Below, piece after piece: positions 6,581 through 27,914 of a stretch of 64,000 nucleotides of DNA (positions within the stretch are counted from its first letter, which is position 1; every line of letters starts with the position of its first letter). Below the pieces are notes generated by a model, which saw only the letters and a list, made by a program, of their open reading frames with translations, was not told the origin of the DNA and searched no databases. The translations under genes were made by a program, and so were the position numbers. This DNA comes from a virus (lineage: Duplodnaviria; Heunggongvirae; Uroviricota; Caudoviricetes): IMG/VR virus record IMGVR_UViG_3300044673_000278, positions 1-64,000 of that record. One strand, given 5' to 3'.

Positions 6581-6609
6581 ATTGTATACTAGAGAGATTT
6601 AGTGGTCAA
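6581..6609 (-). promoter_or_regulatory. sigma70-type early promoter
   Basis: TTGACC-17-TACAAT; -35 overlaps stop of 6606 gene. Confidence 0.75.
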
Positions 6610-6842
6610 GCCCACTTTAGGGTAAATGCGCAGAAGTCGCGCTCAGAATCAAAGTAAAAGGTGTAGCGGCCAGGACGAACGTCCGAACTCACCTCAATCA
6701 GTTGCCAGCGCCACTCGTCTTGCATTTCGCTTTTGCACCAGTTTATCACTGAATCAATGGTGCCAAAAGGTTTGGTGATTTCCCGTGCATGACGGAAACT
6801 TTCTCGATCCCTAATCTGATGAGCAGTGGCTACAGCGGTCAT
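6606..6842 (-). CDS. FxL(K/R)W-tail family protein
   Basis: INWC...FYFDSERDFCAFTLKWA. Confidence 0.75.
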   Translation of the reverse strand: MTAVATAHQIRDRESFRHAREITKPFGTIDSVINWCKSEMQDEWRWQLIEVSSDVRPGRYTFYFDSERDFCAFTLKWA

Positions 6843-6851
6843 TTACATTAG

Positions 6852-7208
6852 TTATGCATGATTCCGGCGCCCTAACATTTTCCACGCAATAACTTGTTCC
6901 ATGCGATACACAAAATCTTCTGCGTATTTGAGTTCAGTAAATGCCACGGCTGTTAGTTCAGCGGTTCGACCAAACATATGATCAAGAAACTCAGGGCTCC
7001 ATGAATGACTCAGTACTATATCGGCGTTGACCCTAACACATTCAAAACCGTTGGTGATTCCCACACAGTAGTCACCAGTTTTGAATGCCTGCTCTAGCAT
7101 GATATATCGGTGTTCGCGCACAGAACCGCGGCCAGGCCAAGACACAGAATAGTGCAAGCCTTCCCATGGCGCAGACATTTGTCCAATATGAAAAATGTTG
7201 CTATTCAT
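6852..7208 (-). CDS. hypothetical protein
   Basis: ATGA overlap with 7205 gene, start MNSNIF. Confidence 0.6.
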   Translation of the reverse strand: MNSNIFHIGQMSAPWEGLHYSVSWPGRGSVREHRYIMLEQAFKTGDYCVGITNGFECVRVNADIVLSHSWSPEFLDHMFGRTAELTAVAFTELKYAEDFVYRMEQVIAWKMLGRRNHA

Positions 7209-7438
7209 GACCAACGTAGACAAAAAGCAGTTAATGTAGGAGCATCGGGCAAGGTCAGTCCCATGCCTTGGATAAAGCCATTGTTTTGTTTGATCCAATC
7301 TTGTAGTTCATCGTAGTGATCGTTCCAGTATTCAAAATCACTGAGAATAACCACGTGTTCGCTGGGGTTGTCTAACAGGTCAGCAGGTGCCACTACAAAC
7401 CGAACGTTCTTAAACTCAGCCATGACGTCATCGGCCAT
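7205..7438 (-). CDS. FxL(K/R)W-tail family protein
   Basis: QDWI...TAFCLRWS. Confidence 0.7.
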   Translation of the reverse strand: MADDVMAEFKNVRFVVAPADLLDNPSEHVVILSDFEYWNDHYDELQDWIKQNNGFIQGMGLTLPDAPTLTAFCLRWS

Positions 7439-7685
7439 ATTTCAACGCAAATGCCACGGCTTCGGCATCGTCTTCAAATTGTATAAACTTTTCTTTGAGG
7501 TAGCCTGGGCCGTGATAATATGGACTACGGCAGTTGGCTTCCAACCATGCATCTACCTTGTGATCCAGGTAACTGCGCTGATAAAAAGCATCCACGTGAT
7601 CCACAGTGTGAGCATACACCACTTTATGCAACACAGGAGTCTTGATGCCCGGAAAGCCCGGCATGGGTTTATAGGTTATAGTCAT
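7428..7685 (-). CDS. FxL(K/R)W-tail family protein (LKY variant)
   Basis: DAWL...IQFEDDAEAVAFALKYGR. Confidence 0.7.
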   Translation of the reverse strand: MTITYKPMPGFPGIKTPVLHKVVYAHTVDHVDAFYQRSYLDHKVDAWLEANCRSPYYHGPGYLKEKFIQFEDDAEAVAFALKYGR

Positions 7686-7909
7686 TGTGCCCACTTGAGT
7701 TGATAGTATGTTGCCAGCATGGGATCTTGAAATCTAAATATCACTTGCCTGGGAGTCACTGCTGACCCAAACAAAACATTGAGATCATACTCGGCCTGCC
7801 GATATTCCCATTCAAAATCCCTATCCATTATCAATCCAGCATCAGTTAACTGATCTCGCAGCTCTAGAGCTTGCACAGCACTGACATGCAGGATTTGCAC
7901 TGGAGTCAT
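7682..7909 (-). CDS. FxL(K/R)W-tail family protein
   Basis: FRFQDPMLATYYQLKWAQ. Confidence 0.7.
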   Translation of the reverse strand: MTPVQILHVSAVQALELRDQLTDAGLIMDRDFEWEYRQAEYDLNVLFGSAVTPRQVIFRFQDPMLATYYQLKWAQ

Positions 7910-9059: not shown

Positions 9060-9797
9060 TCAGTCCCACAGTGCTTGATAGTATTTGCCAAACAGTCGGA
9101 AGCCGTTTTGGATTCGCTTTTCTACCACCTGCATGCCTTCGTAATCACATTCGTAAGTGTCGTTGGGGCCGCGATCCATACGATAATGTGTGTGCTCACC
9201 TTTGGGTACCACATTGCCATTGATATCAACTGGCACAGACACAAAATCAATTTCGCCAGAACGGAACTCATCTTCCCACGAATCATCTGCTTTGTGTTCA
9301 AACGCAAAGATCATTTCGTCCATGACCCAATCCCATCGAGCATGATGATTGTCATCAGTATCCCAGTCATTTTGTTTGGGAGGAGCAGCAGTGCTACGCA
9401 AGTGTTCGGGCACATCCTCGTCATCCACAAACGGTGAGCCGTGCTTGGTTGCCTTGAGTTGCTTCAACATAGGCAAGATAATAGGAGTCAAGGTATAATC
9501 CATGCTCCAGCTATCCCAGCGATCGATTTTGATATACTTGATTTCAGGATGCACACGATCCAACACCCATTGAATTGCTCGGCTGATGGGTGTCAAGTAA
9601 TCTGATGCTTTTTCCACCCACTCAGGACGTTCTACATACTGGCGCTTTTCTCCGCGTCGGGCTCGTGCCTCGTCCTCAAGACTTTGCTCAAGAGTCCAGC
9701 GGCTGCACTTTGACCACTCGGTCCAGAAGAATAGGTAGTCCAACATGGTATATGGACTGATCCAGTGATCACGGGGCTTGCTGAGATATACTTTCAT
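9060..9797 (-). CDS. conserved large-phage hypothetical protein
   Basis: DSWSMDYTL...HGSP...GFRLFGKYYQALWD. Confidence 0.75.
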   Translation of the reverse strand: MKVYLSKPRDHWISPYTMLDYLFFWTEWSKCSRWTLEQSLEDEARARRGEKRQYVERPEWVEKASDYLTPISRAIQWVLDRVHPEIKYIKIDRWDSWSMDYTLTPIILPMLKQLKATKHGSPFVDDEDVPEHLRSTAAPPKQNDWDTDDNHHARWDWVMDEMIFAFEHKADDSWEDEFRSGEIDFVSVPVDINGNVVPKGEHTHYRMDRGPNDTYECDYEGMQVVEKRIQNGFRLFGKYYQALWD

Positions 9798-10039
9798 TGT
9801 TCGACTCCGAAATGTTCTCTAATCTTTTGATACAGAGCATGTTGGTTGTATCCGTAACCATCGTGCCTGATAGTTTCTTTGCTCAACACTTGACAACATT
9901 CTTCTACGATCAACTCAGCGAACTTGGCCACATCCAGTTTTTCTGTGGGTTCAACTAACCCTTTGTCAAGAGCATAGTCCCCTGCTTGATCAGCAGAAAC
10001 AGCACTTTGCCTAATCAGTTCATAAATTCGTTCGTTCAT
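9794..10039 (-). CDS. MNERI...FAELIV.EC...HFGVE family protein
   Basis: Shared motifs with 16557, 26976, 27227 genes. Confidence 0.7.
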   Translation of the reverse strand: MNERIYELIRQSAVSADQAGDYALDKGLVEPTEKLDVAKFAELIVEECCQVLSKETIRHDGYGYNQHALYQKIREHFGVEQ

Positions 10040-10233
10040 TACCAGGCATTCACATCAGTTATGTTTTCACTAAAATCACGCTCAACTCGGTTGGTGTGAT
10101 ACACTGCCCAATGATCGGCTCCAAGGCCAGTTTCATTGGTTTCTTGTATTGTAACACGTTCTACATTTTGTTGTAAAGCCAAAAACACAGCAAGACGCTC
10201 AATTTGGTGTCGGGTCAGTGTAACTTTGTTCAT
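10039..10233 (-). CDS. hypothetical protein
   Basis: 64 aa, overlapping neighbours. Confidence 0.55.
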   Translation of the reverse strand: MNKVTLTRHQIERLAVFLALQQNVERVTIQETNETGLGADHWAVYHTNRVERDFSENITDVNAW

Positions 10234-12665: not shown

Positions 12666-12935
12666 TTAGTCGACCAAACCCAGGGCCATGGCCTTGTAAC
12701 CAGCAGCGATCAGCTTGCGGCTGGGCTTGCCCATTTGGTACTCGGTGACCTTGACGCCATTTCCAGCAACACGCTGGTTGGCATAAACTGCAAAGCCGTT
12801 TTGACGGATACGGCTAACTTCGGCGCTCATGTTCTTGATGCCGAAACGCTTGGCAGCAGCGGCGGGGGTAATTGCTTCGCCGGTACGCAGAGCGCTGAAC
12901 AGTTTGAAAGTCTTAGTGTCTTCATTGAAACGCAT
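12666..12935 (-). CDS. winged helix-turn-helix DNA-binding protein
   Basis: GEAITPAAAAKRFGIKNMSAEVSRIRQNG...YQMGKPSR. Confidence 0.7.
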   Translation of the reverse strand: MRFNEDTKTFKLFSALRTGEAITPAAAAKRFGIKNMSAEVSRIRQNGFAVYANQRVAGNGVKVTEYQMGKPSRKLIAAGYKAMALGLVD

Positions 12936-13072
12936 TTGATAATCTCCTATGTAAGATGCTGTTGCGTCAGCATAGAGTTATTGTAGCAAATAGTGTTGGT
13001 TGGGTGCAATACAAAAAGGCAAGAAATTTTGGCAAAGTTCGCCATTTGTCACAGAATTTTAATATACGCAGA

Positions 13073-13080
13073 TATAAATA
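13073..13080 (+). promoter_or_regulatory. T4-type late promoter
   Basis: Exact TATAAATA upstream of AGGAG and ATG 13104. Confidence 0.65.
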
Positions 13081-13103
13081 AGGTTGCAATAGGAGAGCGT
13101 AAC

Positions 13104-13535
13104 ATGTTGCAAGCATACACCACCATTACCAACGAATTAGAAACCCTGATCAAGGACGATCCTGTGCGTCCTGAGATTCCTGTTGACCGCAGAGTCAATG
13201 CCAACAGTCGCATTTATGTGCTCAAAGAAGGTGAACAAACGCAGGCCGTGACTTGCGTGAAGTTTTTGAACTCGGTGCCCTCGGCTGTGGATGAATTGGT
13301 GGACACAGTGGAATCGGCTACCACTGCGGTATTCTATACCATTTGGAGTTATGCTGCCGGTGCTGGACGTACCTTGATTCAAGAAGCCCAAAAAAGCATT
13401 GAAGCAGAATTTCCAGGGATCAACACCTATGTTACGCTGAGCCCAAAAACCGAAATGGCTCGTCGATTCCATTTGAAAAATGGTGCTGGTATCTACAGAG
13501 AAAACTCTGACACTGTGAACTACATCTATCGCTAA
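13104..13535 (+). CDS. minimal malonyl-CoA decarboxylase-like (GNAT-fold) protein
   Basis: AVFYTI, EFP, VTLSP, FHLKNGA, VNYIY match MCD catalytic-domain motifs. Confidence 0.6.
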   Translation: MLQAYTTITNELETLIKDDPVRPEIPVDRRVNANSRIYVLKEGEQTQAVTCVKFLNSVPSAVDELVDTVESATTAVFYTIWSYAAGAGRTLIQEAQKSIEAEFPGINTYVTLSPKTEMARRFHLKNGAGIYRENSDTVNYIYR

Positions 13536-13741
13536 CACCAACGCAGTGTGAACATCACAGCATGTTCATGCTGACGAAAAAGCCAAGTGGTTCTGGTTCT
13601 GCCGTCAATGACATACTCAGCGGGATCTATGCCCAGTTTATACCAGTCACGATCAAACTCGCCAATGGTGGCTTCGCACCATAACTGCACTGAATACCAG
13701 TCTGGATTTTCTATGGTGATGCGATAAGGCCAGTCGTTCAT
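13532..13741 (-). CDS. FxL(K/R)W-tail family protein (last of array)
   Basis: MNDWPY...QLWC...WLFRQHEHAVMFTLRWC. Confidence 0.75.
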   Translation of the reverse strand: MNDWPYRITIENPDWYSVQLWCEATIGEFDRDWYKLGIDPAEYVIDGRTRTTWLFRQHEHAVMFTLRWC

Positions 13742-13968
13742 GCCCATTTCAATGCACATGCCACAGCATGCCTTTCTTCTTCGAACCAAATGTCCAATCG
13801 CTCGGTGGCTGACAGATAGCGTATATAAAATTTGTCCTTGTTCCACTCTACCAGTTCTAAGATCCAATCCCTAATATCTGCCACTTCATCTAGACGAGAT
13901 TTAATATTCCAAAGGCCTTTGCTCTTTAGAGTTACAAACACGCGATGATTGAGATTGTCGTTGATCAT
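13738..13968 (-). CDS. FxL(K/R)W-tail family protein
   Basis: MINDNL...IWFEEERHAVACALKWA. Confidence 0.75.
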   Translation of the reverse strand: MINDNLNHRVFVTLKSKGLWNIKSRLDEVADIRDWILELVEWNKDKFYIRYLSATERLDIWFEEERHAVACALKWA

Positions 13969-14216
13969 GACCACCTCAACACGAACCAATCACGGTCAGC
14001 AGGGTCTTTGAACCAGAATTTGGCACTGTTGACATACCACCGAGCCGCAGGCGTCCACACGCCATCTTCGGGAGTGGGCCCAAATGTGCTCACACACCAG
14101 GCCAACATTTCGTCCCAATCTTTTCTGAACCACGTGGGTGCAGGTGCAAAAAACAAAGGACGCACTGTCCAATACTGTTGTCCATACACCACACCTTCGC
14201 TGAGTTCGAGTTTCAT
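13965..14216 (-). CDS. FxL(K/R)W-tail family protein
   Basis: MKLELS...AWC...FWFKDPADRDWFVLRWS. Confidence 0.75.
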   Translation of the reverse strand: MKLELSEGVVYGQQYWTVRPLFFAPAPTWFRKDWDEMLAWCVSTFGPTPEDGVWTPAARWYVNSAKFWFKDPADRDWFVLRWS

Positions 14217-14464
14217 GTCCATTTCAAACACAGCATGGTATAGGTTGGTTCATCGACATCAAAGATGCGGCCGTATCGTTCTTCGCCGCCACCGTACTCG
14301 TGCCACTGATCCCGGGGCTGACTTCTTAACCAAGCAGCAATATCTGTGCGGTAAGTGCGAATCACGTACCAAGGCTGATCGTCCACAGTGCCAGTGTTGA
14401 CCAATTCAAATGGTGGCAGATGATTAGCATTGACCCAACCGCCAGGAACAGAAACCAGTTTCAT
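14213..14464 (-). CDS. FxL(K/R)W-tail family protein
   Basis: MKLVSV...AWL...YTMLCLKWT. Confidence 0.75.
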   Translation of the reverse strand: MKLVSVPGGWVNANHLPPFELVNTGTVDDQPWYVIRTYRTDIAAWLRSQPRDQWHEYGGGEERYGRIFDVDEPTYTMLCLKWT

Positions 14465-14673
14465 ACCCACTTTAGTTTGCACAGCGTAATCATTTCTTCT
14501 GTGGTGTACAACACTGCACCAGGTGTGGTACGCCAACACAGTCCCCTCACATGTTGTTTGGCCCAGGCAACAATTTGTTCAGCAGTGCCAACTTCGCAAC
14601 AAAACTCTACCCGATAGTTGTACGGGTATTTGGGCGTTGGTTTATACATCAATTGTTGGACTTGGATCTTCAT
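14461..14673 (-). CDS. FxL(K/R)W-tail family protein
   Basis: MKIQVQ...AWA...TLCKLKWV. Confidence 0.75.
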   Translation of the reverse strand: MKIQVQQLMYKPTPKYPYNYRVEFCCEVGTAEQIVAWAKQHVRGLCWRTTPGAVLYTTEEMITLCKLKWV

Positions 14674-14864
14674 GACCATTTCAATGCAAATAACACGGCA
14701 TCTGCCTCGTTGTGAAACCAAAAGGTGCGAAAAGTATCCCAGGCCCAACGGGTTCCGTTGGGTTCCGGTGGTCCGAAGTTTTGCACACACCACTTCCAAA
14801 CAGGATTAAGTCCGTCTGGACTGTATGTTTGGCGTGCTTTCTTGCTGACTTTGATTTCAATCAT
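14670..14864 (-). CDS. FxL(K/R)W-tail family protein
   Basis: MIEIKV...KWC...FWFHNEADAVLFALKWS. Confidence 0.75.
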   Translation of the reverse strand: MIEIKVSKKARQTYSPDGLNPVWKWCVQNFGPPEPNGTRWAWDTFRTFWFHNEADAVLFALKWS

Positions 14865-15085
14865 AACCACTTCAACTTAAACATCACAGCATCTTGCTCG
14901 CGAGCAAAATGATACTCAAGATAATCTGTGTAGTGATCCACATGCCACGGTTGTTGTTCTGTGACACTATCCCTAAACCTAGCATGAACTCCGACATTGG
15001 TCAACAACCACTTGTTGATAGGACTTTCGTCAATCCATCGGTTGCGTTGTTGTGGATGATACAGTCGAACGCTGGCCGCAATCAT
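14861..15085 (-). CDS. FxL(K/R)W-tail family protein
   Basis: MIAASV...KWL...FAREQDAVMFKLKWL. Confidence 0.75.
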   Translation of the reverse strand: MIAASVRLYHPQQRNRWIDESPINKWLLTNVGVHARFRDSVTEQQPWHVDHYTDYLEYHFAREQDAVMFKLKWL

Positions 15086-15369
15086 GACCACCTCAACTTC
15101 AAAAAAGCAGCCATTTCTGGCGGCACTACGAAAACACTTTCGAACCACAGATACCACGTGTACTTTTCTTTGGGAAAAGCTTCATTCATCCACGCAAACT
15201 CTTCGCCAATGACATCTACACAATAGTGCCCTTCGTATCCACTGGGCACTTCGTCTCTAAACGAATTAGGAAGTTTAAAAATGCTTGGTTTCGAGAGCCA
15301 ATCAGCATGTTGATCTAATTCTAAATCAGAGATAATAGTGCCAGGCATGGCTCGGAAATTTGCTTTCAT
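15082..15369 (-). CDS. FxL(K/R)W-tail family protein
   Basis: MKANFR...AWM...MAAFLKLRWS. Confidence 0.75.
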   Translation of the reverse strand: MKANFRAMPGTIISDLELDQHADWLSKPSIFKLPNSFRDEVPSGYEGHYCVDVIGEEFAWMNEAFPKEKYTWYLWFESVFVVPPEMAAFLKLRWS

Positions 15370-15578
15370 GACCACCTCAATGCGAACATCACAGCATCTC
15401 GATGTGAGCGAAAATGCCACACAGTTTCGGACCGATTGAACATACCGCCGCGATAGTCGTCCTCACAGTTTTGCCGGCACCACTCAAACCTCTGATCTTT
15501 ACCCCACACCCAGCCGCCCGAATGTGGCACTGTCACACGGTGCTGGAGATCTCGGCTGCGACTGTATTTTGCTGTCAT
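15366..15578 (-). CDS. FxL(K/R)W-tail family protein
   Basis: MTAKYS...EWC...WHFRSHRDAVMFALRWS. Confidence 0.75.
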   Translation of the reverse strand: MTAKYSRSRDLQHRVTVPHSGGWVWGKDQRFEWCRQNCEDDYRGGMFNRSETVWHFRSHRDAVMFALRWS

Positions 15579-15766
15579 AACCACTTCAATGCAAACCACG
15601 CAAAGTTTTTTTCTCTGACACTGAATCCATAGCCATGCGGACCGCTGTATTCGTGCAAGTATTTGATATCGTTTTTTGTCATCCAAGATATTATATCTAA
15701 AAATTCTTGGAATGTTTTTACAAAATAATGGTTATCAGGATAACCTCTAACTTGATAAACTTTCAT
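15575..15766 (-). CDS. FxL(K/R)W-tail family protein
   Basis: MKVYQV...SWM...FAWFALKWL. Confidence 0.75.
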   Translation of the reverse strand: MKVYQVRGYPDNHYFVKTFQEFLDIISWMTKNDIKYLHEYSGPHGYGFSVREKNFAWFALKWL

Positions 15767-16047
15767 GCCCACCTCAACATAAATGCAGTGCGGTCGCGCT
15801 CGTGCTTGAAGTAGATGGTTTCCCAGTTCCAAATCCAGTCGTTGCCAAAATGCTGTTCACACCACTCGGCAACCTCCTCAAACGGAGCCACACCGTTGTA
15901 TTGCCAGCTAGGAAAGCGGTCTTTGACATAGCAAATAACAGCCCAAGAATCGGCAGTCATACGGTGACCGTCACCAACAAAGTTCATCAACTTGTCTTGC
16001 AAAGTTGCATGAATCAAATCAATTTTGAGCGTGTCCCGAACTTTCAT
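15763..16047 (-). CDS. FxL(K/R)W-tail family protein
   Basis: MKVRDT...EWC...IYFKHERDRTAFMLRWA. Confidence 0.75.
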   Translation of the reverse strand: MKVRDTLKIDLIHATLQDKLMNFVGDGHRMTADSWAVICYVKDRFPSWQYNGVAPFEEVAEWCEQHFGNDWIWNWETIYFKHERDRTAFMLRWA

Positions 16048-16313
16048 GACCACCTCAAGCAGAACAGCAGATATTCTTTTTCGTCAGTGAAGTAGAATGT
16101 AGGATACTGATGGTGCCAGTTGGGCTCGTAGTAGCCGCCGTGGTAGAGGTTGTTGTAGCACCAGTCGGCCATGTCTTGCCACTGAGCTATTGGCACACTG
16201 TCAAACCGCCGAACGAATACTTGGGTCTTTGACGTGCTTACAGTCGCCACGGAATCGGAAGCCGGAACATGTGCATGATAGATTTCCACTGTGCTCTGTG
16301 ATTCGGTATTCAT
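16044..16313 (-). CDS. FxL(K/R)W-tail family protein (first of array; start uncertain, probably near 16200)
   Basis: DWC...FYFTDEKEYLLFCLRWS; track start overlaps the SWIM gene. Confidence 0.65.
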   Translation of the reverse strand: MNTESQSTVEIYHAHVPASDSVATVSTSKTQVFVRRFDSVPIAQWQDMADWCYNNLYHGGYYEPNWHHQYPTFYFTDEKEYLLFCLRWS

Positions 16314-16560
16314 CGCCTTTGCTGCCTTTCACAATCCAATAACGGCCTTCAGGTTCTGGTTCCTTGAGCTTGGTCTTAAACTGCACAGGGTTGACCACAA
16401 ACTTACGCCCACGAGTATCAATTTTGATGGGATTCTTAAATGTTTTGATCTCCCCACCAGCGGGACGAAACGCATACATCTTGGTCTTTGAATCATCCAG
16501 CAAGTAGATGCCGTTGGGCACACTGTCCTTGTAGTCAGTGGTTTCAGCAAACCATTTCAT
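16201..16560 (-). CDS. SWIM zinc-finger protein
   Basis: VKGSKGDEY...CTC.GF.FR..CKH. Confidence 0.8.
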   Translation of the reverse strand: MKWFAETTDYKDSVPNGIYLLDDSKTKMYAFRPAGGEIKTFKNPIKIDTRGRKFVVNPVQFKTKLKEPEPEGRYWIVKGSKGDEYRITEHSGNLSCTCSGFRFRGDCKHVKDPSIRSAV

Positions 16561-16796
16561 TCTTCTTCTAATCCAAAATGTTCTAGGATTTGACGTGGGA
16601 CTTCATAGTTACCGTCAGCATAGCGTTCACCAACATCGGCACATGCCCGAACAATCAACTCGGCGAACTTTAGGTCTCGGGCTTTTTGAATTGTAGCCTC
16701 CCATGTCAAGCCATTCTCTATACCACGAAAGAAGGGAATCTCTACAGCAATTGCCGAACATTGACTAGCAATTTCTTGAATTCGTTGTTCGTTCAT
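16557..16796 (-). CDS. MNERI...FAELIV...HFG family protein
   Basis: MNEQRIQEI...KFAELIVRAC...HFGLEEE. Confidence 0.7.
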   Translation of the reverse strand: MNEQRIQEIASQCSAIAVEIPFFRGIENGLTWEATIQKARDLKFAELIVRACADVGERYADGNYEVPRQILEHFGLEEE

Positions 16797-16906
16797 AGTG
16801 CCATGATCCTTGCCAACACTTCACGGGCTTGAGTGAGATCCACAATCTCGGGTTCGGGCCAACCCTGATAGGGCTGGCTCCAGGATATAGTATACAGCAT
16901 CATTGG

Positions 16907-17133
16907 TTATCCTCTAACGTACTTACGACCCAGTGGGACGTTGACTACATCATCCCAGAATTCATCCCAGTAGGTTTTGCTAACATTTTGAAAACGTTGG
17001 TACATTGTACCTTTTGCTTGTTTCAATGTTGCACCTTTGAGCAATTCTCTCAGCAGTTGCTCTCGACATTCGCTGACTGTTGGATGCCAGTTATCACGTT
17101 CAGGCCTCACATAAAAATATTCTGTCATCTCAT
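16907..17133 (-). CDS. hypothetical protein
   Basis: ATGA overlap, start MTEYFY. Confidence 0.5.
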
Positions 17134-17510
17134 TTCTCCAGAGCGTAGGGTTGGTCCCAACGACCGATGTTGACATCAATGTAGTGACTGCAATGGAAGT
17201 AATCAGTTTGAGCGTCCGACTCGTCAAAGTAGTCCGGACCGTACATGGCCGGAATCACTTCGCTCAGAAAGTCTCGGGCACGGCCAGTGAAATGGCTTTG
17301 GTAGTGATAGGGGTTGACTTGGATGTGAAACTTGCGGTTAGCACCTTCAAGGTTCATGTCTGAGTAGAAGTCAATGTTGCCTTGCTTGACTGTGAGCACC
17401 AGACTCATATGATTGCGAACACTGAGCGTGGCCTTGACGCCATACTTTTTGCAAATAGCCTTGATGGCGGGGGCCAACTTTGCCTTGTGCTCTTGACTCA
17501 TGTATGCCAT
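17130..17510 (-). CDS. conserved phage hypothetical protein
   Basis: MAYMSQE...SDAQTDYF...IGRWDQPY; SD CAGGAG. Confidence 0.75.
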   Translation of the reverse strand: MAYMSQEHKAKLAPAIKAICKKYGVKATLSVRNHMSLVLTVKQGNIDFYSDMNLEGANRKFHIQVNPYHYQSHFTGRARDFLSEVIPAMYGPDYFDESDAQTDYFHCSHYIDVNIGRWDQPYALEK

Positions 17511-25061: not shown

Positions 25062-25090
25062 ATTGTACACAAAAAATCATTTCTGGTCAA
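25062..25090 (-). promoter_or_regulatory. sigma70-type promoter
   Basis: TTGACC-17-TACAAT. Confidence 0.7.
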
Positions 25091-25289
25091 ATGCCAGCGA
25101 AAACCACACAGCATCTTCCTTGCGTTCAAACCACACTGTGTTGGAACCATAATACAAGTAGAACCGACCTGGACTATCCATGAGTTGGAGTTGGCGTTTG
25201 ACCGCAGAGTACGGCTGGGTGCCAGGTACTCGTTGGACTTTGAACCAATGTTCCTGACGAATCCGTTTGTCTTTGTTCCAATACTTCAT
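25077..25289 (-). CDS. FxL(K/R)W-tail family protein (variant tail)
   Basis: VWFERKEDAVWFSLAF. Confidence 0.7.
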   Translation of the reverse strand: MKYWNKDKRIRQEHWFKVQRVPGTQPYSAVKRQLQLMDSPGRFYLYYGSNTVWFERKEDAVWFSLAFDQK

Positions 25290-25516
25290 GACCATTTCAA
25301 CTTAAACAAGGTTACAGCCGCGTCTGAATTCAACTTCCACATGTCGTAACTGGTGCGCAGTCCCAATTGGTTTGCTTGCACAAACTGATCGATTTCAGCG
25401 GCTTCGTGCTCATCAATTGCATAGCCCATGGGCGCTCCTGCACTACTGGCCGGACGCACACGCACCTTGCGCCGCAGCCAACTGAAGTGAAACCGCTGGC
25501 GTGGTGGCAATGTCAT
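25286..25516 (-). CDS. FxL(K/R)W-tail family protein
   Basis: DAAVTLFKLKWS; ATGA overlaps. Confidence 0.7.
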   Translation of the reverse strand: MTLPPRQRFHFSWLRRKVRVRPASSAGAPMGYAIDEHEAAEIDQFVQANQLGLRTSYDMWKLNSDAAVTLFKLKWS

Positions 25517-25755
25517 CCCCATCGCAGTTTGAATGCAGTGGCATCTGCACCCGATTCAAAAGCAAATTCACGACGTTGAAAACTGCTGACCCAATAGCTG
25601 CTCATTTGCTGTTCACACCAAATATTCAATCCCATCCAGGATGCCTTGGCTTCGTAACCATTTTGAGCCTGAACAACATGCCACCCGCGCTTTTGGGCAC
25701 CACGTACAGTGCGTGGGTTGGTGGGTCGATAGGGTTTGGAAAGACAGCGAGCCAT
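25513..25755 (-). CDS. FxL(K/R)W-tail family protein
   Basis: IWC...FAFESGADATAFKLRWG. Confidence 0.7.
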   Translation of the reverse strand: MARCLSKPYRPTNPRTVRGAQKRGWHVVQAQNGYEAKASWMGLNIWCEQQMSSYWVSSFQRREFAFESGADATAFKLRWG

Positions 25756-25997
25756 TACCGGTAACCTTTCTTCAACAGCCAAATAGTAACTTCGTGAGGA
25801 TCCAGTTTGCAAAGCTCTCCACTGTGTTTATTCACAGGGCGAGTGGTTTTGCTAGGATTGATCAGCATGATCTTGACATAGCCCTTGCCGCTAGCGGGAT
25901 GGGCTTTGCCTAGGCCGCGAACTTCGTAGATGTTGTTGTGAAACACCACAAAATCACCTATTGCAAGTTCCCGGTCAATCAAGTCAGTGGGCGTCAT
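25755..25997 (-). CDS. small SH3/KOW-like hypothetical protein
   Basis: DLIDRELAIGDFVVF. Confidence 0.6.
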   Translation of the reverse strand: MTPTDLIDRELAIGDFVVFHNNIYEVRGLGKAHPASGKGYVKIMLINPSKTTRPVNKHSGELCKLDPHEVTIWLLKKGYR

Positions 25998-26751: not shown

Positions 26752-26979
26752 TCATTCTTCAACTCCAAATTTTGCGTTTTCTTGACAGGCTTCAATGACA
26801 CCGGGTGTCAGACAGAGTTTGAGAATGTTACCCATCATTACTTGATTGTGTTGCATGGAAGAATCTAGTAACTTATGGTATTCTTCTTTAAACCAACTAA
26901 GTTGTTCGTTCTCGATTTCAAGTTGAGCGATTCGTTCTTGCATTTCAATAACTTGATATGCGAAATCTACAATATTCAT
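26752..26979 (-). CDS. coiled-coil hypothetical protein with FGVEE tail
   Basis: Unrelated body but ends AKFGVEE. Confidence 0.6.
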   Translation of the reverse strand: MNIVDFAYQVIEMQERIAQLEIENEQLSWFKEEYHKLLDSSMQHNQVMMGNILKLCLTPGVIEACQENAKFGVEE

Positions 26980-27230
26980 TCTTCAACTCCGAAATGTTGT
27001 TTGACAACTGCTTGACATGATTCAACACCCCATGTAAACCCTTCGTCTACTAGTTTGTTTTGCTTGTCTGTGTATTGTGGTTGTGCATTGAAATAGGCGC
27101 CTGCTTGTTCAATCTTGTTCAAACATTCCTGAACAATCAACTCGGCGAACTCTTGTTTATCTTCTTCGGTCCAAAGTAGACCTCTAAACCCATTTTGGGC
27201 CTGAATAAGTTCAAAAATTCGTTGGTTCAT
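26976..27230 (-). CDS. MNERI...FAELIV.EC...HFGVEE family protein
   Basis: MNQRIFEL...EFAELIVQEC...HFGVEE. Confidence 0.7.
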   Translation of the reverse strand: MNQRIFELIQAQNGFRGLLWTEEDKQEFAELIVQECLNKIEQAGAYFNAQPQYTDKQNKLVDEGFTWGVESCQAVVKQHFGVEE

Positions 27231-27454
27231 TCTTCAATTCCAAAATGCTTCTTTGCCACTGCAACACCTTCATCTACATCAGTGTAATGCAATACAATAT
27301 TGGTACATTCCCTGACAATCAACTCGGCGAACTTTTCAATTCGATCATCCCAGAGCTCGTGCGTTTCTACAACCTGGATCGGATTGCTTGCAAGATTGCG
27401 AGAGGATGTTTTGCCGCCTGCACGTTTAAAGAGTTCCTGAATTCGCTCGTTCAT
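27227..27454 (-). CDS. MNERI...FAELIV.EC...HFGVEE family protein
   Basis: MNERIQEL...KFAELIVREC...HFGIEE. Confidence 0.7.
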   Translation of the reverse strand: MNERIQELFKRAGGKTSSRNLASNPIQVVETHELWDDRIEKFAELIVRECTNIVLHYTDVDEGVAVAKKHFGIEE

Positions 27455-27639
27455 TTCACTTCTCCATATACGGCTTCGTAATCTTCGACACGCTTACGCA
27501 TTTCAGCAATGGCTTTTTCTTGTGCCGCAGGGTATCCACTGGCGGGACGATTGCGGTCAAGTCCTTGTAGGACAGATTTGTCTAGACTGATAGTTGCGTG
27601 ATTGTTTGTGCTAGGACTAGTCCCTCGTCCAATAATCAT
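27451..27639 (-). CDS. hypothetical protein
   Basis: Start MIIGRG after CAGGAG. Confidence 0.5.
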   Translation of the reverse strand: MIIGRGTSPSTNNHATISLDKSVLQGLDRNRPASGYPAAQEKAIAEMRKRVEDYEAVYGEVK

Positions 27640-27710
27640 TCCCGTTCTCCTGTTGCCGCGTTGACCCGACCAAGGTAGACAGCCTGTTTCATTTTTCAAC
27701 TCCAAAATGT

Positions 27711-27914
27711 TTAGCGTGTTTTGATATCAACACGGTCTCCGGTCCAACCGTCAATACACACAACTGGCAATTGATTATACAATGCTGGGGTTTTGTGAAC
27801 CCGTTCACAAAGTGCCGCATACTCTGATTGCGACATTCCAAGAGCCGACTTGGGATTTTGTCCAATCGCTTGAACCTTGGCTGTAAGTTCTTTACCATAT
27901 CTACGGGGCATCAT
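27711..27914 (-). CDS. hypothetical protein
   Basis: 67 aa ORF in operon orientation. Confidence 0.45.
   Translation of the reverse strand: MMPRRYGKELTAKVQAIGQNPKSALGMSQSEYAALCERVHKTPALYNQLPVVCIDGWTGDRVDIKTR

Follow-up and report, generated by a model that had tools for sequence, protein, structure and literature searches.

Integrons combine an IntI integrase, attI and attC sites and promoter-less single-gene cassettes, and in lambdoid phages mosaicism reportedly follows the modular theory of Susskind and Botstein, with gene-sized modules being exchanged and junctions lying at gene boundaries. T4-type phages carry PeSL cassettes, repeated promoter-terminator units that flank shuffled ORFans and give rise to mini-circles (Arbiol et al. 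2010, PMC2839356; Comeau et al. 2014, PMC4122927). At the level of translation, ATGA- and TGATG-coupled gene pairs with an intragenic Shine-Dalgarno (SD) sequence have been described, in which the SD is essential in some cases and contributes nothing in others (Huber et al. 2019, PMC6728339). Here we describe an array of 12 small genes in the first 64 kb (64,000 nucleotides, hereafter the window) of IMG/VR virus record IMGVR_UViG_3300044673_000278 (251,693 bp, GC 46%, CheckV completeness 72%), a jumbo phage genome encoding a ribonucleotide reductase, a DNA ligase, a ClpX-like ATPase and a RecA/UvsX-like recombinase. The joint at which one gene of the array passes into the next is a single short sequence under three constraints at once, as protein tail, ribosome-binding site and stop/start overlap. 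It is known in kind, from ATGA coupling and from PeSL-like cassettes; what is new is that it is coding, translational and much shorter than PeSL. We consider it likely that this joint is a dual-coded element of translational coupling whose microhomology also helps the turnover of whole genes.

The array (13532-16313, minus strand) consists of 12 head-to-tail genes for proteins of 63-95 aa with zero intergenic DNA, as read from the open reading frame (ORF) listing and the translations. The 12 genes, diverged members of one very large small-protein family that has no annotation, probably form one polycistronic run, and each protein ends in the tail hydrophobic-x-L-(K/R)-W-x. In the last 12 codons of all 12 genes, the 11 internal joints without exception end in TGG-N(C/T)A-TGA, the next ATG overlapping the stop as ATGA; the final codon is TCA in five, GCA and TTA in two each, and GTA and ACA in one each. 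Leu is TTG in 10 of the 11, the exception being CTA at 14461. The five L-R-W joints (16044, 15763, 15366, 15082 and 13965) all encode Arg by AGG and have GAGG at a distance of 5 nt from the ATG. Four of them, at 13965, 15082, 15366 and 16044, contain the exact 15-mer TTGAGGTGGTCATGA, with no copy expected from 100 shuffles. These features, together with the tail of the last gene (Table 1), had been noticed in an earlier reading of the sequence (the original prediction), and all of them were confirmed from the printed gene ends. Against the codon usage of 204 long ORFs of the whole genome, where TTG makes up 29.6% of Leu codons and AGG, the second-rarest Arg codon, 4.9% of Arg codons, the probability of AGG in five of five joints is 2.8e-7, that of TTG in at least 10 of 11 is 4.2e-5, and that of all four LRWS joints reading TTG-AGG-TGG-TCA is 4.4e-8.

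Shared nucleotides of this kind might be left over from recent duplication or gene conversion among paralogues, with no selection at the DNA level. The genes are indeed tandem paralogues and the joint is their most conserved stretch, yet they are at most 40% identical over 45 residues, so that silent sites should be saturated and the shared joint codons are not the residue of a recent duplication. The same 15-mer is found, moreover, in unrelated phages (GC 32-63% across 80 examined loci), and codon choice switches with the coupling state, as described below. This explanation is already strongly disfavoured, and we regard it as very improbable.

The terminal gene provides a built-in control, since it retains the tail peptide and drops the SD codons, and this control is replicated many times over in relatives belonging to many phage lineages. 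We fetched 65 related IMG/VR loci through the conserved gene for a 119-aa protein that precedes the array, a selection blind to the joint itself. An iterated profile recovered 208 family ORFs from these loci, all on the strand of the anchor gene and 206 of them with the motif at the extreme C-terminus, and a stop/start overlap (4 nt or 1 nt) was present in 119 of 160 scored tails. Tails were sorted into coupled ones (ATGA or TAATG/TGATG) and uncoupled ones, and one tail was taken per 50%-identity cluster and class. Arg was encoded by AGG in 44 of 50 coupled tails, as against none of five uncoupled ones (Fisher p=1.3e-4), and Leu by TTG in 46/66 as against 2/12 (p=8e-4); Arg itself was used instead of Lys in 50/70 coupled and 5/12 uncoupled tails (p=0.05). 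The contrast in AGG and TTG indicates that the L-(K/R)-W peptide is retained regardless, whereas the SD-forming codons are found only where a gene follows. The codon bias on which the original prediction turned is thus significant both in the window and in the relatives, and it depends on an overlapping downstream start. The protein tail would be under selection in its own right, being kept with other codons where no gene follows, and codon choice would overlay on it a translation signal, TTG-AGG-TGG-NNA-TGA, where one does.

It could be argued that AGG, as a rare codon near the stop, has been selected to slow the ribosome, for the sake of folding of the C-terminal helix or of termination kinetics, rather than for pairing with the 16S rRNA. 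Its low frequency in the genome and its invariable position three codons before the stop would fit such a role. On the other hand, neither folding nor termination predicts that AGG should depend on an overlapping start; the Leu codon of coupled tails is likewise G-ending, which completes GAGG, and a second protein family (described below) reaches the same end by other means, with GGA-GTT giving GGAG. We therefore find this an improbable explanation for the choice of codons at the joint.

The strength of the SD at the joints was assessed by pairing the last 16 nt of each gene with ACCUCCUUA, in comparison with 2,000 synonymous recodings of the same peptides. The LRW joints reached -8.4 kcal/mol, each in the top 1.3-1.8% of the recodings. 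As had been predicted for the LKW junctions, the six of them have only a weak SD (-2.0 to -4.1 kcal/mol) and, like the terminal tail (-2.1 kcal/mol), do no better than synonymous expectation. With GAUCACCUCCUUA, a generic 16S tail that may not be that of the host, the LRWS joint can make nine uninterrupted base pairs (-15.8 kcal/mol). The phage also has ordinary SDs, AGGA and GGAG being enriched 8-9 fold upstream of long ORFs. At the joint, GAGGTG(G) would pair with the 3' end of the 16S rRNA. The ATG follows at a distance of 5 nt and has three bases in common with the TGA stop, so that a ribosome finishing one gene could begin the next, or a new ribosome could load there. L-R-W joints would in this way offer a strong SD, while L-K-W joints, with almost none, would depend on termination-reinitiation.

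This arrangement resembles the ATGA-coupled pairs in its co-directional overlap of 4 nt (1 nt in some relatives) and, at the LRW joints, in the location of an SD within the 3' end of the upstream gene, and the mixture of strong LRW and near-absent LKW signals matches the variable SD contribution in those pairs. Unlike them, however, the signal does not belong to one gene pair but is part of the conserved C-terminal tetrapeptide throughout a protein family, the same 15-mer recurs along the array and across unrelated phages, and the choice of codon, and in part that of Arg or Lys, switches with coupling. The joint supplies a rule by which gene callers and annotators can place start codons in arrays of this type, and for synthetic biologists it is a compact natural coupling element. 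Fusion of successive genes by a -1 frameshift was also considered and dropped, as the joint GGTGGTCATGA has no X-XXY-YYZ slippery heptamer.

The joint is by no means confined to this phage. The exact 15-mer was found in at least 120 IMG/VR stretches, with up to eight co-oriented copies in 2.2 kb; of 123 occurrences among the matches listed, 91 form the end of a family ORF and a further 20 the end of some other ORF read in that frame. Distant members of the family led to arrays in contigs with a GC content of 31%, 40% and 42%, where TTG-AGG-TGG-TCA-TGA is used again, and an uncoupled member in those contigs ends in CTT-AAA-TGG-TCT-TAA, followed by an intergenic GGAG. Residues that lack an NNA codon occupy the C-terminus of only six of 257 database relatives, as against a background of 37%, a scarcity that fits a family-wide xxA-TGA overlap. 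A full-text search of the literature for the 15-mer returned only unrelated primer sequences.

The joint is also the dominant direct-repeat family of the array region, with nine copies, and the original prediction had suggested that it might double as a recombination site, letting genes be added, lost or reordered like cassettes without an integron. Array order and content proved not to be fixed: nearly all the relatives found through the 119-aa gene differ in their array, which comprises two to more than 20 cassettes (two in L003-L005, nine in L006, 16 in L009, six in L013 and more than 20 in L034), usually with g1 first and often with c4 last. The 2.6-kb relative L001, 77-86% identical in DNA over shared genes, has the order g1 g2 X1 g4 g5 X2 X3 X4 g3-like g9 g11, followed by the post-array sequence of the window, and is without g6-g8, g10 and g12. 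Its g3 slot is filled by an unrelated family member, and g3-like genes stand in other contexts in L001 and L034. The gene g4 has five different neighbourhoods (window, L001, L006, L007 and L009), its homology beginning 12 nt ahead of the preceding stop and ending at the stop of g4 itself, while the homology of g5 with L001 stops at the stop codon, which lies in TCATGA in the window and in TCATAATG in L001. The terminal tail without SD (CTG CGT TGG xGT TAR) and the DNA downstream of it are fixed, and the body ahead of them differs between the window (g12) and L001 (g11); in L001, g11 carries the terminal tail CTG CGT TGG AGT TAA before the post-array sequence of the window. Gain, loss and replacement of genes between relatives were thus borne out, whereas the evidence for reordering is thin and concerns one cassette type (g3) in three contexts.

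Breakpoints do not avoid the joint. Of 69 informative ends of blastn homology blocks, 47 fall within 20 nt of one, and two crossovers could be placed inside it. In the indel of g10, the L001 g9|g11 joint combines the left half of the window g9|g10 joint with the right half of g10|g11, and the crossover maps to TGG. In an indel of about seven cassettes between L006 and L003-L005, the g1|c4 joint is composed of the left half of L006 g1|g4 and the right half of L006 c21|c4, with the crossover inside AGGTGGTCA. Chimeric assembly at the repeat was entertained for these cases and dropped, the 15-nt repeat being shorter than assembler k-mers and the g1|c4 joint being identical in three contigs (L003-L005) from three samples. 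The proposed double role was supported, none of the three outcomes named as contradicting it having been observed; codon bias tracks coupling, and the recombination function, though inferred, is supported by the crossovers internal to the joint. The joint may mark the boundaries of cassettes, since the same 9-15 nt stand at each gene boundary in one orientation and in a fixed relation to the frame. Crossover or slippage between joints, within a genome or between co-infecting relatives, would remove, add or replace whole genes, and a newcomer would automatically be expressed, giving a hypervariable, integrase-free cassette array.

The same differences would also arise if the joint were a translation signal only and cassettes were exchanged by random illegitimate recombination or lost differentially, breakpoints being seen at joints because any other would destroy a gene or its expression. 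With no intergenic DNA, only boundary breakpoints give viable products, and breakpoints at boundaries are indeed expected from selection for intact ORFs alone. At the two resolved crossovers, microhomology extends over just 3 and 9 nt, and order is largely collinear, as expected of loss and replacement within a scaffold. Yet the crossover between L006 and L003-L005 lies inside shared joint bases and in register, the g10 indel shares only TGG, and the joint dominates the direct repeats of the region. Furthermore, the tail Leu in coupled joints of the window and L003-L067 is encoded more often by TTG than by CTG (46:9, p=8e-6), beyond the need of the SD, a hint of some further constraint at the DNA level. 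On balance we think it possible, if rather unlikely, that the joint acts in translation alone.

Several observations nevertheless weigh against a joint that both couples and recombines. Outside the array, two ATGA-coupled LRW tails of the window encode Arg by CGT (7205) and CGA (25513), so that the AGG rule is strong and not absolute; six of the 11 window joints have no useful SD; and the excess of TTG over CTG is left unexplained by SD pairing, which is equal for the two codons, as both complete GAGG. All relatives are metagenome assemblies, and the 16S tail used is the generic one mentioned above. True reordering is barely documented, the evidence being limited to the g3-like genes and to duplicated types in L034, and the crossover microhomologies measure only 3-9 nt. 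Read from sequence as it is, the coupling role of the joint appears well supported; its recombination role seems plausible, and the joint would be the cause of the breakpoints, rather than their marker, only by inference.

With PeSL the array shares short conserved expression signals between the small genes of a hypervariable region (mostly ORFans in the case of PeSL), and in both systems insertions, deletions and replacements between close relatives are repeat-bounded and a shuffled gene keeps its expression signal. PeSL, however, is an intergenic transcription signal composed of a sigma-70-type early promoter and a terminator hairpin, whereas the joint described here is coding, translational and 9-15 nt long. 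An intergenic promoter and stem-loop of the PeSL type are not present, there being no intergenic DNA and no promoter or terminator signal above chance: in 12900-17300, promoter-like and terminator-like sites showed no excess over shuffled expectation and none fell at any joint, and a search for the TATAAATA box located no promoter for the array. The joint may be viewed as a second, translation-level counterpart to the PeSL model of accessory-gene shuffling in hyperplastic regions of large phages.

Like an integron, the array is one-directional and built of promoter-less single-gene cassettes whose number and identity vary between close relatives. As expected of a system without an integron, PF00589 found no match to an IntI-type tyrosine recombinase in the 251,693-bp record, which is about 72% complete. 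The overlap of 4 nt between genes leaves no room for attC sites, and the sole palindrome at the joint is the 6-mer TCATGA, formed by the Ser and stop codons and present on both strands at each LxWS joint (for example 16044-16049). Unlike the cassettes of an integron, those of the array all come from one protein family. In lambdoid phages, module boundaries are reportedly mostly not conserved sequences, whereas in the array a defined, dual-coded motif stands at each gene boundary. Exchange of cassettes by general or microhomology recombination is most likely, and the RecA/UvsX-like gene (G000 92492-93256, minus strand; PF00154 E=3.5e-17) is a candidate for general recombination acting on the arrays. 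One may speculate, with considerable reserve, that the L-R-W joint constitutes a general integrase-free gene-cassette system of phages, in which a motif of 9-15 nt guarantees translation and also provides the site of crossover whenever single genes are excised (perhaps as mini-circles), captured or exchanged by co-infecting phages, the arrays being fast-evolving repertoires of, for example, host-takeover or anti-defence proteins; this we hold to be doubtful.

Table 1. Genes of the array, neighbouring genes and further family clusters in the window (all on the minus strand unless marked +)
Feature	Position	Length (aa)	Tail	Joint and remarks
g1	16044-16313	89	...FCLRWS	TTGAGGTGGTCATGA at 16044-16058; SD pairing -8.4 kcal/mol
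g2	15763-16047	94	...FMLRWA	TTGAGGTGGGCATGA at 15763-15777; 91% identical orthologue in L001
g3	15575-15766	63	...FALKWL	TTGAAGTGGTTATGA; weak SD (-3.0)
g4	15366-15578	70	...FALRWS	exact 15-mer at 15366-15380
g5	15082-15369	95	...LKLRWS	exact 15-mer at 15082-15096
g6	14861-15085	74	...FKLKWL	TTGAAGTGGTTATGA; weak SD; missing from L001
g7	14670-14864	64	...FALKWS	TTGAAATGGTCATGA; no SD; minimal domain, structure-model query
g8	14461-14673	70	...CKLKWV	CTAAAGTGGGTATGA; sole joint with non-TTG Leu (CTA)
g9	14213-14464	83	...LCLKWT	TTGAAATGGACATGA
g10	13965-14216	83	...FVLRWS	exact 15-mer at 13965-13979; missing from L001
g11	13738-13968	76	...CALKWA	TTGAAATGGGCATGA
g12 (terminal)	13532-13741	69	...FTLRWC	CTG CGT TGG TGT TAG; no SD (-2.1 kcal/mol), no overlap
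Conserved upstream gene	16201-16560	119		C-x-C-x9-C-x-H motif; SWIM-like by eye, no Pfam match
Malonyl-CoA-decarboxylase-like gene	12993-13535 (+)			Pfam MCD E=7e-8
Second family cluster	6606-7909		LKWAQ, LKYGR, LRWS, LKWA	
Third family cluster	25077-25812		LRWG, LKWS, then a member without the W tail	ATGA overlaps

The family to which the array proteins belong is very large and is flagged here as a family of small phage proteins absent from Pfam and PHROGs. In alignment A1, which comprises the 12 array proteins, a Trp in a W-C-x3-F-G helix and the L-x-W at the end are invariant, and its profile recovers all 12 proteins with E values of 1e-13 to 1e-21. Members (alignments A1 and A2) are 50-130 aa long, with the W-C-x3-F-G helix, a W...F-x-F hairpin and a C-terminal helix of the form (E/D)-x-D-A-x2-F-x-L-(K/R)-W that ends 1-2 residues before the stop. 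Against 1.84 billion cluster representatives the profile found 1,884 at E<=1e-3, nearly all of them 50-130 aa in length and with the motif at the very end of the protein. When the array proteins and ten database relatives were scanned with Pfam and PHROGs, nothing usable emerged, and 50,697 GenBank phage records contained no match, either in blastn with the array or in tblastn with a typical family member. AlphaFold2, applied to g7, the member with the shortest domain, with 80 relatives, predicted a beta-alpha-alpha-beta-beta-alpha fold (pLDDT 83) in which L-K-W closes the last helix. Foldseek against the PDB returned nothing at E<=1e-3, and VIA-align returned only generic alpha/beta sandwiches at Z<5; matches in BFVD and the ESM Atlas were exclusively to uncharacterised proteins of uncultured phages. 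Two database proteins depart from the usual architecture. P0007 (141 aa) joins two domains of the family in a natural fusion, with ...FILKWL still closing the first of them, and P0002 (1,176 aa), helicase-like in its N-terminal region, carries seven repeats whose match to the profile is confined to the W-C-x2-N-F-G helix.

At the head of the array, the ATG of g1 lies inside the upstream 119-aa gene, whose last ~37 codons (16201-16313, minus strand) are overlapped out of frame; the overlap and the start context AAAGGCGATGA are conserved in L001, L002 and IMG/VR relatives, and the family domain of g1 is too long to fit downstream of the stop of the 119-aa gene. At the other end, the stop of g12 overlaps that of the convergent malonyl-CoA-decarboxylase-like gene at 13532-13535, which leaves no space for a terminator between the two transcription units. 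Seven further family members are found in the window, at 6606-7909 and 25077-25812 (Table 1). Within the former region, TGGTCATGA (CTA-CGT-TGG-TCA-TGA) couples a family member to a non-family gene at 6852-7208 (minus strand, ~117 aa counted from its ATG at 7208); the joint would thus also drive unrelated genes, with CGT as the Arg codon in this instance.

A second family of small proteins, with the tail H-F-G-(V/I/L)-E-(E/Q/K), is encoded on the minus strand of the window at 9794-10054, 16557-16820 and 26752-27910, and further at G000 79056-80021, 226841-227101 and 233853-234116. In these genes TTC-GGA-GTT-GAA-GAA-TGA sets GGAG 7 nt before the ATGA overlap. Ten of the 11 members in the genome are ATGA-coupled, and Gly is GGA in all 11, as against 18% in genome usage. 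The H-F-G-tail family is an instance of the same design principle in an unrelated family.

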